Shown piece by piece: positions 20,585 to 23,429 of a stretch of DNA of 23,460 nucleotides. Position numbers and translations under genes: made by a program. The DNA lies in the IMG/VR virus record IMGVR_UViG_2728369186_000002; one strand, 5' to 3'. Every line of letters starts with the position of its first letter. Position 1 is the first letter of the stretch. Origin of the DNA: a virus. Its lineage: Duplodnaviria > Heunggongvirae > Uroviricota > Caudoviricetes. The notes under the pieces were generated by a model. That model was not told where the DNA came from. It searched no databases and worked only from the letters and a program-made list of their open reading frames with translations.

Positions 20585-21277
20585 ATGTCTAGAGAAGGCT
20601 CGTTGGACTTATTGCAAGAAGTTGAAGAAAGTCTTGACATAATGAGACAGACACAGCATATCAAGCCTGTAAAAGTCAAAGCTATTTTGGAAAACTTACG
20701 AAGTTCCTTAGAGTATCTCGCTAATGATACCTATGATAAATATATTTCTCCACGCAGTAATGATGAGCGCCCCAAAATATATTTCCCTTACGGAAAAAAA
20801 GAGTTTATTGATAAATTTTTCTCAAAGACGCTAAAAATAAACCCACCATCATCTTCTCCATTATATAAAATTTTTACTTCTATACAGGATTATCACACTG
20901 GCGAATCTTGGTTGGAAATGATGTGTAATCTCACTAATGAAGTAAAGCACAGACAACCAATCCCCTTAAGAGAAGAGAGTTCTGTTAAAGACCTAAGTGT
21001 GAGCGTAGATGGTTTTGGTTTAATCACAGCAGGAAGCTCAGCAAAAATTCTCTTTAAAAACAACCACATCAATGGCAAAAAATTAGAAGACTTTACTTTC
21101 GAAAATGGGAAATTACAAAGAAGTGGTAATGGTGTACCTTTAAACATAGTCATTACCGAAGAGAAAAAAATAAGATTCCATGGGAATGACCATGAAGTAA
21201 TTCCTTTCATTGAATCATGCCTTATTAAAATCAGAATTTTTATTATCGAAGCCTATAATGAGTTAGATAAGATTTGA
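20585..21277 (+). CDS. Hypothetical 230-aa cargo protein (moron) at the bor-equivalent position; function unknown
   Basis: AAGGAG Shine-Dalgarno (20568-20573) before ATG 20585; ~30% GC ORF on the strand opposite the late operon between Rz and cos; hydrophilic, no transmembrane segment or motif I recognise (MSREGSLDLLQEVEESLDIMRQTQHIKPVKVKAILENLRSS...). Confidence 0.8.
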   Translation: MSREGSLDLLQEVEESLDIMRQTQHIKPVKVKAILENLRSSLEYLANDTYDKYISPRSNDERPKIYFPYGKKEFIDKFFSKTLKINPPSSSPLYKIFTSIQDYHTGESWLEMMCNLTNEVKHRQPIPLREESSVKDLSVSVDGFGLITAGSSAKILFKNNHINGKKLEDFTFENGKLQRSGNGVPLNIVITEEKKIRFHGNDHEVIPFIESCLIKIRIFIIEAYNELDKI

Positions 21278-21370: not shown

Positions 21371-21445
21371 GCCCATTATTAATCTCACTAGGCAATGAAT
21401 TTCTAATATTAAATTTCATCGCCAGATTTTAAATTTCCTGCAACC

Positions 21446-21982
21446 TTACTGGCCATGCTCAGATGGTCTGTAACGCAACTCATCAATTTCACGAATACTC
21501 GAAAAATTATTATTTCCTTTTTCTATCAACGCCAGTAGCGGCTTAATCCACAAGACAGCTTGGCAGTAGGTCATTGAGCTGGTGGTAGCGGTACGATCAT
21601 AGGCTTCATTAGGTCTGCCGGTATCGGTGTGCATGGCGCTGGCACGTAAACGGTACGTGTATTCGAGCAACCCACCAGCGATATCAGCAGGAACAGGCAG
21701 ATCACAGGTTTTTTCACGGCGGAGAATCTCCCGGTATTCGATTACGGTTTTTTCGGTGCTGGTGTCGATCAGGGAGTTAAGACTGTTGGCATGTTCTGCA
21801 ACCTGATTGAATCGATTGAAGTTGAATGCCTGGGTGGCGATTACCTGCCCCAGCATAGAGTTGTCACTTCGCAGAACGTCGTTATCGCTCTGAAGATTAC
21901 TGGCGTGAGAGCAACTCTTGACGAGAGCGACCGAAAGGCCAGCAATAACGACAACGCCTATAAGATCCGGATTAATTTTCAT
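21446..21982 (-). CDS. Rz i-spanin (inner-membrane spanin subunit)
   Basis: 178 aa from MKINPDLIGVVVIAGLSVALV (N-terminal transmembrane helix) with a periplasmic coiled-coil-like body; ATG overlaps the endolysin stop (ATGA); contains Rz1 in the +1 frame. Confidence 0.8.
   Translation of the reverse strand: MKINPDLIGVVVIAGLSVALVKSCSHASNLQSDNDVLRSDNSMLGQVIATQAFNFNRFNQVAEHANSLNSLIDTSTEKTVIEYREILRREKTCDLPVPADIAGGLLEYTYRLRASAMHTDTGRPNEAYDRTATTSSMTYCQAVLWIKPLLALIEKGNNNFSSIREIDELRYRPSEHGQ
21571..21717 (-). CDS. Rz1 o-spanin lipoprotein embedded in Rz
   Basis: +1 frame inside Rz, GTG start with GGGAGA upstream; (M)KKPVICLFLLISLVGCSNTRTVYVPAPCTPIPADLMKPMIVPLPPAQ has a lipobox LVGC and a proline-rich mature part, typical of Rz1. 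Confidence 0.65.
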   Translation of the reverse strand: MKKPVICLFLLISLVGCSNTRTVYVPAPCTPIPADLMKPMIVPLPPAQ

Positions 21983-22521
21983 TGCTCCAGCCCCCAGCAC
22001 GCCAGTGCGCTTTCCTGATCGCGCCGCTCGACCTGCCCATAACAGCCATTCTTCTGCCCTTTTGTCAGGCGGCAATCACGCCCACCATCTTTTATCCACC
22101 AGCGAATCGCCTCGCATGCCCCCTTACGATCATCGGCATTCAGCCGCTTATAAAACGTCGACGGGAAACACTTACCGGGGCCAATGTTATAGGGACAAAA
22201 TGACGCTATACCCGCTTTCTGTGGTTCGGTCAGTGGCACTTTAATATTGCGCTCCACCCATGCCAGCGCCTTATCCCGTTCAATGGCGTTAACCTGGTCG
22301 CATTTTTCCTTCGACAGTTTCATACCGGGAAAAACGGGTTTTCCATCCACCACCGTGGCACCCCGACAGATGGTCCAGATGCCGGAACCATCGCGGTATG
22401 CCGTTGTGTGGTTACCTTCTTTTTCATTCAGAAACTGGTCGAGAATATCAGGCGCAGGCGCACCGACGGCAATCAGTGCCAGAACGGCAGCCGACAGGCC
22501 GTATCTGATTTTTACGTTCAT
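21979..22521 (-). CDS. SAR endolysin (T4-lysozyme-type muramidase with signal-anchor-release domain)
   Basis: 180 aa; weakly hydrophobic Gly/Ala-rich N-terminus LSAAVLALIAVGAPAP; catalytic spacing E-x8-D-x5-T in EGNHTTAYRDGSGIWT as in phage 21 R and K-12 prophage lysozymes; no obvious Shine-Dalgarno before the ATG. Confidence 0.85.
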   Translation of the reverse strand: MNVKIRYGLSAAVLALIAVGAPAPDILDQFLNEKEGNHTTAYRDGSGIWTICRGATVVDGKPVFPGMKLSKEKCDQVNAIERDKALAWVERNIKVPLTEPQKAGIASFCPYNIGPGKCFPSTFYKRLNADDRKGACEAIRWWIKDGGRDCRLTKGQKNGCYGQVERRDQESALACWGLEQ

Positions 22522-22581
22522 GGATATTTATCAGGATTTATCGGTTTCTGAACCCTGGATATGTTTATCTGTCCCGGCCTG

Positions 22582-22612
22582 TTGAATCAGGCAAGGAATA
22601 GTTAAATACAAT
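22582..22612 (+). promoter_or_regulatory. Weak candidate promoter for the 90-aa plus-strand ORF
   Basis: TTGAAT (22582-22587) and TACAAT (22607-22612), but the spacer is 19 bp, so this is speculative. Confidence 0.2.
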
Positions 22613-22626
22613 AGAGAGGATTGTTT

Positions 22627-22899
22627 ATGGACAATAGCACCATTTCTCTACAGGAGTTGCTCGACTGCATTTCCAAGCTTCGGGATGATGTAAATGCCCT
22701 TACTGTCGCATTTTCATATCTGGCATTCTCAATTCCCAAGGAACAAATGCAACCAACACTGGCATCGCTCCAGCTTGAATCACTCAACCCCAAATGGTCC
22801 CAGCAACAACAAAATTCTTTCAAGTGGCTGGCGGTATTACTGGAAGAAAAATATGCTGGTGAAATTACCATTTCGGCGGAGTCTTCAGAGAACCAGTAA
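22627..22899 (+). CDS. Hypothetical 90-aa protein encoded antisense within the lysis cassette
   Basis: GAGAGGA Shine-Dalgarno 6 nt before ATG 22627; MDNSTISLQELLDCISKLRDDVNALTVAFSYLAFSIPKEQMQPTLASLQLESLNPKWSQQQQNSFKWLAVLLEEKYAGEITISAESSENQ; 3' end overlaps the convergent DUF1327 gene by 35 nt; no family recognised. Confidence 0.55.
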   Translation: MDNSTISLQELLDCISKLRDDVNALTVAFSYLAFSIPKEQMQPTLASLQLESLNPKWSQQQQNSFKWLAVLLEEKYAGEITISAESSENQ

Positions 22900-23209
22900 T
22901 TCTTCCCGGTAGCTTTCCTTTGTAGGTTATCCACACATTCTGCGCCTCTAAAATTATGGGGCGCTTTTCCGGCGACAGCTCATCCCCTTCACATAACCCG
23001 GCAGCAACATCCAGGAAGACCTGTCTGATGCTCCTTCTGGCTGCTGCCTCATAAAACTCCAGCGCGGCACCTTCAACACGGTCCAGCGAGATGTCCAGGT
23101 CAAAAATTTCACCGTCAAAGCGTTCTTTGTCCCGTAACGCTAAAGTTACCGTAACTTTATTCTCAAAATTGCGGATCCCTTTCACAATCAGTTCATATTT
23201 TTGAGTCAT
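22865..23209 (-). CDS. DUF1327-family protein (YdfR-like) between holin and endolysin
   Basis: 114 aa, MTQKYELIVKGIRNFENKVTVTLALRDKERFDGEIFDLDISLDRVEGAALEFYEAAARRSIRQVFLDVA...; resembles my recollection of K-12 Qin YdfR, which sits between essQ and rrrQ; GGGGAGAG Shine-Dalgarno overlapping the holin stop. The C-terminal ~30 aa may be altered by the adjacent insertion. Confidence 0.6.
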   Translation of the reverse strand: MTQKYELIVKGIRNFENKVTVTLALRDKERFDGEIFDLDISLDRVEGAALEFYEAAARRSIRQVFLDVAAGLCEGDELSPEKRPIILEAQNVWITYKGKLPGRITGSLKTPPKW

Positions 23210-23213
23210 TGAA

Positions 23214-23429
23214 TTACTCTCCCCGTGCAGCCTTACGCTTGTCTTCTTTAATCTTGAAATAAAGGTTTGTCAGGTACGTCAGCAGGCCAAATACCAGGCT
23301 ACCCAGCACACCTATTGCTGCCCACTGTGAGGGCGTGACTTTATCGAGCAGCTGTAAAAACCAGTAGCCAGCACTGCCTGCGGAGGTGCCGTAGGCAATG
23401 CCTGTTGAAATTTTGTCCATGGATTTCAT
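23214..23429 (-). CDS. S: Pinholin, phage-21 S-like, with dual-start motif
   Basis: 71 aa, [71 protein letters not shown]; Met1-Lys-Ser-Met4 dual start, two transmembrane helices (first Gly/Ala/Ser-rich), charged C-terminus; GGAGGTGA Shine-Dalgarno. The track ORF begins 10 codons upstream at the window edge. Confidence 0.85.

Follow-up and report, generated by a model that had tools for sequence, protein, structure and literature searches.

The virus record IMGVR_UViG_2728369186_000002 (IMG/VR; Caudoviricetes), a stretch of 23,460 nucleotides (nt) referred to here in its full length as the window, carries a lysis cassette in which 692 bp lie between the stop codon of the holin gene and the ATG of the endolysin gene. 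We consider it probable (roughly 0.7) that this interval is a two-gene accessory module, composed of a forward moron, ydfR, and a reverse moron that consists of a leader (22522-22626) and an open reading frame (ORF) of 90 amino acids (aa) on the opposite strand. Morons are extra, self-contained accessory units in a phage operon that are assumed to be expressed while the late operon is off (PMC3594210). In the proposed module, ydfR would be read with the late operon, and the reverse unit would be read against it and end inside the 3' end of ydfR. A moron paired with a reverse moron is already a recognised kind of locus, and the 90-aa gene is already annotated as hypothetical in more than 1000 genomes. 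A first-pass annotation, made from the sequence alone, had described a holin and an endolysin separated by extra accessory DNA, which proved correct; the elements it had placed there, the lower GC content, the 35-nt overlap with ydfR and the Shine-Dalgarno sequence of the ORF were likewise all confirmed by sequence and Pfam (Table 1).

According to the comparison of its copies, the 90-aa ORF is a genuine, constrained protein-coding gene. The plus-strand frame is open over its 90 codons in nine of nine diverged copies (DNA differences up to about 12%) and intact in 80/80 copies from IMG/VR, whereas a 110-aa frame on the minus strand is broken by stops, at several different positions, in six of the same nine. 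Variable sites number 16, 12 and 34 at codon positions 1, 2 and 3, and the pairwise ratio of nonsynonymous to synonymous substitution rates (dN/dS) in the plus frame is 0.17-0.43. This ratio was discarded as a strand test, as the antisense frame has common third-codon positions and an equally low value; the coding strand is assigned to plus because stop codons break the antisense frame. The ORF could be regarded as a chance or shadow frame in a non-coding spacer or in the 3' untranslated region (UTR) of ydfR, given that it is short, has no Pfam or NCBIfam family and faces an equally long ORF open on the other strand in the window, but the comparative data effectively refute this: the frame is conserved, substitutions are concentrated at third positions, homologs with a shared motif reach down to 28% identity, and phrog_2411 is matched over the full length of the protein (E 2e-59). 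The interval is thus not one that is conserved without coding constraint, and the suggestion of the first-pass annotation that the protein is a small cargo with its own ribosome-binding site was borne out. An annotation trap is corrected at the same time, the 110-aa antisense ORF being only the shadow of the real gene.

The gene is widespread. Its DNA was found in 1139 of 5426 complete Escherichia coli genomes, the exact 90-aa sequence occurs on at least 1000 contigs (entries WP_000370546 and A0A135Y1U0, both 'hypothetical protein'), and close relatives are limited to Escherichia and Shigella. The copy of strain C41(DE3) sits in the Rac prophage and is labelled hypothetical protein by the Prokaryotic Genome Annotation Pipeline (PGAP); the identity of the BL21/C41(DE3) copy to the window is 99.7%. 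The inducible phages Chlobot (PP925838) and vB_EcoS-783R2 have the cassette as well. No Pfam, NCBIfam or PADLOC family matched the protein (PADLOC at E <= 0.1), the phrog_2411 family has no function annotation and no Pfam model, and literature searches by accession and by 'ybl58' returned nothing. Several independent frameshift alleles with 94-aa products were seen in E. coli genomes (L013 1523-1796; proteins P0044, P0046, P0049, P0051, P0058 and P0063; one flagged as a pseudogene by PGAP), which fits decay in cryptic prophages.

More distant relatives, at 28-56% identity and 81-106 aa in length, were recovered from across the Enterobacterales (Citrobacter, Atlantibacter, Serratia, Sodalis and others) by an exhaustive profile search and a second, indexed search. 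For protein P0067, IMG/VR yielded no relatives. They have in common the motif ELLD..I..LR..VN.L.vAFsYLaFS....e....T(I/L).(S/A)L.(F/L)ES, which is present in the 90-aa protein, itself a full-length match to the family profile A3. AlphaFold2 predicts a three-helix bundle (predicted local distance difference test, pLDDT, 78) in which residues 80-90, encoded in the stretch overlapping ydfR, are disordered; these residues are not kept in the distant homologs. The homology and structure search that had been suggested for this protein therefore delivered homologs and phrog_2411, and no usable fold match: comparison with solved and viral structures, by fold and by sequence, was uninformative.

The phage-borne distant homologs again point against the late operon, in varied positions: between tail genes M and L in an Atlantibacter-type prophage (L014), upstream of the holin in a Citrobacter prophage (L037), and upstream of two small unannotated genes followed by terminase genes (L018). 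An overlap of 7-17 nt with the 3' end of a small convergent gene is typical of them. A conserved convergent partner gene was considered and rejected, the partners of the distant homologs being mutually non-homologous. In at least two lineages, probably Serratia-like, chromosomal orthologs (X) on metagenome contigs occupy a conserved pyrC-dinI-X-bssS-solA context (L022 3001-3279; L034 2501-2776), and similar 92-aa proteins are named in many Serratia species. Since dinI ends with its own terminator, X is probably transcribed separately. In the Citrobacter prophage, a match to the Rfam family isrI, an Hfq-binding small RNA (sRNA), was noted about 1.7 kb from the family member (L037 4429-4526, minus strand; 51.7 bits, above the gathering score). 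Because the homologs occupy such varied phage and chromosomal contexts, the conserved entity is the protein and not any one antisense target.

This bears on the possibility, raised in the first-pass annotation, that the plus-strand transcript rather than the protein is functional, as a cis-antisense RNA that would damp ydfR, holin or endolysin in lysogens or delay lysis. The geometry lends itself to such a brake. As had been pointed out, late transcripts must pass through the ORF in antisense; the ORF converges on ydfR with a 35-nt overlap, the first nucleotides of the leader are the complement of the endolysin start codon, and as no plus-strand terminator is predicted, transcription might continue through ydfR into the holin gene. 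The minimum free energy (MFE) fold, moreover, has a long-range helix that pairs the anti-endolysin-start sequence with the ORF start (z = -2.4). Against this stand the purifying selection in the ORF frame, which all copies keep open, the distant homologs that retain the protein and not the target (between tail genes, upstream of a holin, or in dinI-X-bssS antisense to nothing), the unrelated proteins found in the same slot, and the persistence of ORF-deleted phages. As selection acts on the protein and some homologs are antisense to nothing, we do not favour an RNA-level brake as the function and consider it unlikely; it may occur as a side effect, and would leave the protein-level conservation unexplained.

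The holin-ydfR-endolysin order without the 90-aa ORF is found in many lambdoid phages, such as vB_EcoS-611R1 (YdfR of 116 aa, spacer of 63 nt). Two further cargo types occupy the same slot on the plus strand: 2H10 and PhiR5_1 encode type 2 (phrog_2572; 86-88 aa), and Stx2 phage 86 encodes type 3 (phrog_1853; 104 aa). Both accompany longer YdfR variants (183-268 aa) and, like the 90-aa protein (type 1), have no PADLOC match; kinship among the three types was looked for by profile-profile comparison and none was detectable. On the ydfR side, homology between the types stops just after the codons for ...SLKTPP, beyond which the window reads KW-stop and 611R1 ESQP-stop, and type 2 runs about 70 codons further. 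The last two codons and the stop of the window's ydfR (KW*) are accordingly cassette-specific. YdfR variants span 103 to 268 aa, and their C-terminal tails vary according to the convergent cassette.

On the endolysin side, the first 25 nt 5' of the ATG are identical across cargo types 1, 2 and 3 and cargo-less phages, and between the window and 611R1 the identity extends over the first 30 nt. Phages without the ORF (e.g., 611R1 and L003) keep block A and a decayed block B of the leader described below, although the covariance model of the leader no longer detects them. As the first half of the ORF's leader is still present, they are best read as deletion derivatives that would have lost about 270 bp. 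Aligning holin-endolysin intervals, as had been proposed, hence placed one boundary after ...SLKTPP and failed to yield a clean insertion, and the picture of the ORF segment as a simple insertion into a ydfR-endolysin backbone had to be given up. The endolysin ATG has no Shine-Dalgarno-like sequence before it, which had been taken as a sign of a recombination junction; it is not a junction scar, because the 25 nt concerned, part of the conserved leader, are invariant across cargo types and cargo-less phages. We observed the same lack in another late gene directly 3' of a cassette, so that it affects both the endolysin (22522-22551, minus strand) and the tail-slot gene L (L014 ~2845-2870). A separate arrangement was seen in phiSTEC1575-Stx2k (L007 1206-1891), where the block of holin, ydfR and reverse ORF is followed by two more holin-like genes and an M15 peptidase, with no lysozyme of RrrQ type. 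The leader, including the complement of a start codon, is kept there; the module has therefore been recombined onto another lysis cassette.

What connects these cassettes is the leader. Nearly invariant DNA blocks were found upstream of distant homologs whose proteins are at most 36% identical, and these blocks recur before cargo types 2 and 3 and, in degenerate form, before the ORF of the window. A pattern scan of IMG/VR for this leader retained at least 174 copies after filtering, at least 52 of them distinct. Behind each copy come a Shine-Dalgarno sequence and a start codon, usually no more than about 20-35 nt away, that opens a small ORF; the cargo comprises at least 12 families without BLASTP kinship, of which one is DUF1883 and the others have no function assigned. 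Two backbones recur in the late operons of temperate phages: a lysis slot between holin and endolysin, where the leader extends from the complement of the endolysin ATG, and a tail-tip slot, where a late-strand terminator hairpin precedes the leader. In the tail slot, the terminator-like hairpin and a U-run lie immediately before the candidate ATG of the late gene. The convergent forward gene of the tail slot has a conserved N-terminal part and a cassette-specific C-terminal tail. Judging from these distributions, the leader is portable with respect to both cargo and site, and the cargo is dispensable and can be lost by deletion. Outside phages, a leader copy (27.5 bits; L028 1544-1667) was noted in a chromosomal context before a DUF1883 gene (1676-1963), with a 106-aa member of the 90-aa family about 540 bp downstream of this cassette, so that two cargo families stand side by side.

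For structural comparison, a covariance model (R1) was built from 26 non-redundant canonical leaders, for which RNAalifold gave the helices P0, P1 and P1a; P2 was added by inspection. In P0, ATCAGG pairs with CCCTGG over a 17-nt spacer, with arms and spacing invariant in all leaders. P1 is a long-range helix (UCAGCC:GGCUGA) that encloses the hairpin P1a, and P2 (AGAGG:CCUCU) would be pseudoknotted with P1. Canonical leaders have 96.2% of cells paired, compared with 31-42% when the partners are slid, and 51 double-change cells, compared with 19.6 +/- 3.9 in shuffles, none of 500 of which reached 51. Compensatory changes occur at nine pairs of the leader helices and are focused in P1a (six of eight pairs) and at the top of P0 (two apical pairs); P2 shows a single double change and P1 never any covariation. 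The 69 G.U cells make the structure favour the cargo strand, on which 96.2% of all cells are paired, versus 87.6% on the opposite strand. Searched at E <= 1, the window and six canonical-leader loci had no relevant Rfam match, and literature searches with leader sequence strings found no description; the element thus appears to be undescribed. We tentatively suggest, as a possibility short of a conclusion, that the leader is a cis-regulatory RNA and promoter module of ~110-120 nt that defines portable antisense cassettes with hypervariable small-protein cargo at two fixed hot spots in temperate phages of Enterobacterales. It would comprise P0, P1, P1a and a pseudoknotted P2 formed from Shine-Dalgarno-like and anti-Shine-Dalgarno-like strands; each cassette would rewrite the C-terminal tail of the convergent late gene, and the 90-aa gene would be one cargo among others. 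If true, the leader could serve as a search handle for accessory genes, possibly of immunity or counter-immunity.

The leader also led to annotated reverse morons in cultured phages. BLAST of a canonical leader matched HK97, HK022, ES18, HK633, mEp043, mEp213, SPN3UB and others, and R1 scored 83-114 bits upstream of HK97 gp23, HK022 gp23 and ES18 gp25, compared with 35 bits in the window. GenBank labels HK97 gp23, whose gene is convergent and overlapping with that of the 'moron product' gp22, a 'reverse moron product'; HK022 gp23, paired with gp22, carries the label 'srb protein; moron gene product'; and ES18 gp25, a 'possible moron', converges on the DUF1327 gene gp24 between M and L. As in the window, a small forward late gene faces a small reverse gene in convergent orientation, usually with an overlap. 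The forward gene of ES18 also encodes a DUF1327 protein, gp24, which is a homolog of YdfR in the window (Pfam E 3.8e-7; BLASTP E 1e-4). The reverse gene product of ES18, gp25, shares 55% identity with the cargo of a cassette in the lysis slot (L134), whose convergent partner is by eye short and DUF1327-like, resembling gp24, although a Pfam query with a truncated copy gave no match. Based on the pairings in ES18 and L134, a DUF1327 gene with a reverse moron is evidently a module found in both slots, of which the 692-bp interruption in the window is one. The modules differ in position, those of HK97, HK022 and ES18 lying between tail genes (I and J, or M and L) and that of the window between holin and endolysin, and in cargo, as none of the three reverse gene products (gp23 of HK97, gp23 of HK022, gp25 of ES18) belongs to the 90-aa family. 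In addition, the leader of the window is degenerate compared with theirs, having lost P1 and P2, and is without the late-strand terminator hairpin that precedes the tail-slot leader, and the HK97 and ES18 records annotate a terminator for the reverse morons whereas none is predicted in the window. A literature search for the term 'reverse moron' found nothing.

The leader copy of the window fills the entire intergenic region between endolysin and ORF (~105 nt) from the complement of the endolysin ATG. Its score compares with 48-61 bits for type 2 leaders and 18-69 bits for other distant loci. ATCAGG-N17-CCCTGG followed by TATGTT is matched exactly (22530-22565), and both the P0 hairpin and the P1a remnant are present in the MFE fold of the window RNA. 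In place of TCAGCC the window has CTGTCC, and GGCTGA is missing, so that both strands of P1 as well as P2 are lost. The ribosome-binding region is better kept: an AGGA lies 6 nt 5' of the ATG of the ORF (22617-22620), and GAGGATT is retained in all type-1 cargo copies. Several other candidates for the function of the leader were considered and rejected. A mini-ORF, ATG GCT GAT TAA, does not qualify as translated or as the true cargo start, since its frame relative to the cargo varies and it pairs with UCAGCC. A LexA box in block A is incompatible with the spacing (CTG-N9-CAG, not N10); sigma-54, sigma-32 and sigma-E promoters did not fit when the leader was compared by eye with their consensus; and CsrA sites or mimicry of the 16S 3' end, considered for the GGA motifs and GAUCACCUC, are unsupported, as key positions vary. 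The Pas sRNAs of enteropathogenic E. coli are located elsewhere (in the interval between an esterase gene and the holin, or in a structural operon), and the supplement of the respective paper contained no sequence match.

With regard to the features expected of a moron, the ORF is present or absent between the same flanks, which in relatives enclose no ORF or unrelated ones, and its base composition differs from its surroundings (GC 0.37-0.47 across 22500-22950 versus about 0.50-0.59 in flanking DNA). For expression, the invariant TATGTT is present, and it may act as a -10 element. Scans of the plus strand found no consensus sigma-70 promoter and no consistent -35 in combination with TATGTT, and no intrinsic terminator is predicted on the plus strand downstream of 22899. 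An observation apart is GCGCC-N13-GGCGC followed by TTTT (22940-22972, plus strand), antisense inside ydfR, which is the sole terminator-like feature 3' of the ORF; its loop exceeds the size handled by the scanner, and the sequence is also under YdfR coding constraint.

We posit that the leader supplies promoter and/or 5'-UTR signals, and that the cargo would form an autonomous transcription unit expressed while the late operon is silent, i.e., in the lysogen. Two variants can be envisaged. In the first, P0 would be an operator-like palindrome around a weak promoter with TATGTT as -10, and a start near 22572 would produce an RNA with a base-paired 5' end, a plausible stabiliser; in the second, the whole 120 nt would be RNA. 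The 90-aa protein would be a trans-acting accessory factor with the host or other phages as its target, a role that we take as the default. It would stand outside the lysis machinery, and any antisense effect on ydfR or endolysin would be a by-product. Some points weigh against this model. Autonomous expression is putative, because neither a consensus sigma-70 promoter nor a plus-strand intrinsic terminator was found; P0 could be a DNA palindrome instead of an RNA helix; the leader of the window is without P1 and P2, and its action may be altered here; and the several frameshifted alleles show that loss of the 90-aa gene is tolerated.

A more specific role for the cargo would be that of a prophage-expressed superinfection exclusion, anti-phage defence or counter-defence factor, which would make the two sites hotspots of immunity and counter-immunity. 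Small, hypervariable cargo at fixed sites behind a common leader would be in line with this. One moron product of this phage group, HK97 gp15, is a proven exclusion protein (PMC3594210), and phage moron loci have been reported as hotspots for Tai immunity genes (PMC11364771). PADLOC, on the other hand, matched neither the 90-aa protein nor cargo types 2 and 3, and the stable chromosomal orthologs between dinI and bssS in at least two lineages would better suit a housekeeping or stress-related role. We therefore regard a defence function as possible but rather unlikely.

Alternatively, the 90-aa protein might be a component of the lysis cassette, as a partner or regulator of YdfR, holin or endolysin. 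More than 1100 E. coli genomes have it beside the 114-aa variant of YdfR within the lysis cassette, a reverse moron likewise accompanies a DUF1327 gene in ES18, and YdfR binds RNase E and RNA (PMC13232886), which makes an RNA-linked function of the module conceivable. Family members exist, however, without a DUF1327 or lysis gene nearby, YdfR is paired in other phages with unrelated cargo or none, and tail-slot convergent partners are not homologous to YdfR. A part in lysis thus seems improbable, and an accessory module remains our preferred interpretation.

Among known lysis loci, a parallel may be drawn to bor of phage lambda, a lysogen-expressed moron that adjoins the lysis genes and is oriented opposite to the late operon. 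Like the ORF of the window, bor is a small accessory gene at the lysis region, against late transcription and not needed for lysis. It lies downstream of Rz and encodes a lipoprotein, whereas the ORF of the window lies between holin and endolysin; no sequence relationship and no shared leader were found between the two. At the bor-like position, the window has another ORF against the late operon (20585-21277, plus strand; 230 aa), flanked by the Rz/Rz1 region and by the terminase genes and situated in AT-rich DNA (GC about 0.36 at 21400-21549). Neither Pfam nor PADLOC gave a match for it, and it has no R1 leader.

The Qin prophage of E. coli K-12 has, in essQ-ydfR-rrrQ, the same backbone of holin, DUF1327 protein and RrrQ-type lysozyme, and the names essQ and rrrQ appear in the PGAP annotation of relatives of the window. 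We take the Qin YdfR to be 103 aa, with presumably no reverse gene annotated there; as in 611R1, this may be a deletion form. In phage 21, the S21 pinholin gene is directly followed by that of the signal-anchor-release endolysin, and this adjacency had served as the frame for the first-pass annotation. The comparison is apt for the holin, which belongs to the same P21 S family (PF04971), and not for the endolysin, which PGAP naming in relatives assigns to the RrrQ type and not to R of phage 21; the holin and endolysin genes, neighbours in phage 21, have the 692-bp module between them in the window. The late genes of the window are located on the minus strand in the reading order holin, DUF1327/YdfR, lysozyme, and then Rz/Rz1-like frames, and the holin of relatives is annotated by PGAP as a 216-bp 'class II holin'. 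The overlap between ydfR and the ORF covers 22865-22899.

Table 1. Features of the lysis locus and of the reverse-moron leader in the window.
Feature	Position	Strand	Evidence and remarks
Endolysin (phage lysozyme), RrrQ type, without Shine-Dalgarno	21979-22521	-	PF00959, E 1e-23; downstream flank of the module
Reverse-moron leader, divergent copy	22516-22632	+	R1 35.1 bits, E 1.6e-7; sole copy in the window
Helix P0, alternatively palindromic operator	22531-22558	+	UCAGGAUU (22531-22538) pairs with the region ending CCUGG (22554-22558)
TATGTT, invariant -10-like hexamer, candidate promoter element	22560-22565	+	Invariant in leader alignment A6
P1a remnant hairpin, GCCUG-uugaau-CAGGC	22577-22592	+	Comparison with canonical leaders; in MFE fold
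Shadow ORF of 110 aa, not a gene	22602-22934	-	Stops in 6/9 relatives; no family match
Shine-Dalgarno GAGAGGA of the 90-aa ORF	22614-22620	+	Sequence
90-aa ORF from ATG, phrog_2411 family, putative reverse-moron cargo	22627-22899	+	
DUF1327/YdfR gene, 114 aa	22865-23209	-	PF07041, E 7.6e-43; forward partner of the module
Class II holin, phage 21 S-type	23214-23429	-	PF04971, E 1.4e-35; upstream flank of the module

Taken by itself, the 90-aa ORF is an ordinary, widespread prophage accessory gene. It is the shared leader that ties it to the annotated reverse morons of HK97, HK022 and ES18 and that shows the insertions in the lysis slot and in the tail slot to be one cassette family, and the covariance model provides a handle, in both sequence and structure, for a systematic listing of the cargo. 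If the leader is a regulatory RNA, the cassette would offer a simple test system, being available in the Rac prophage of BL21/C41(DE3) and also in HK97 and HK022, and with it a way to ask how prophages express genes against a silent late operon.

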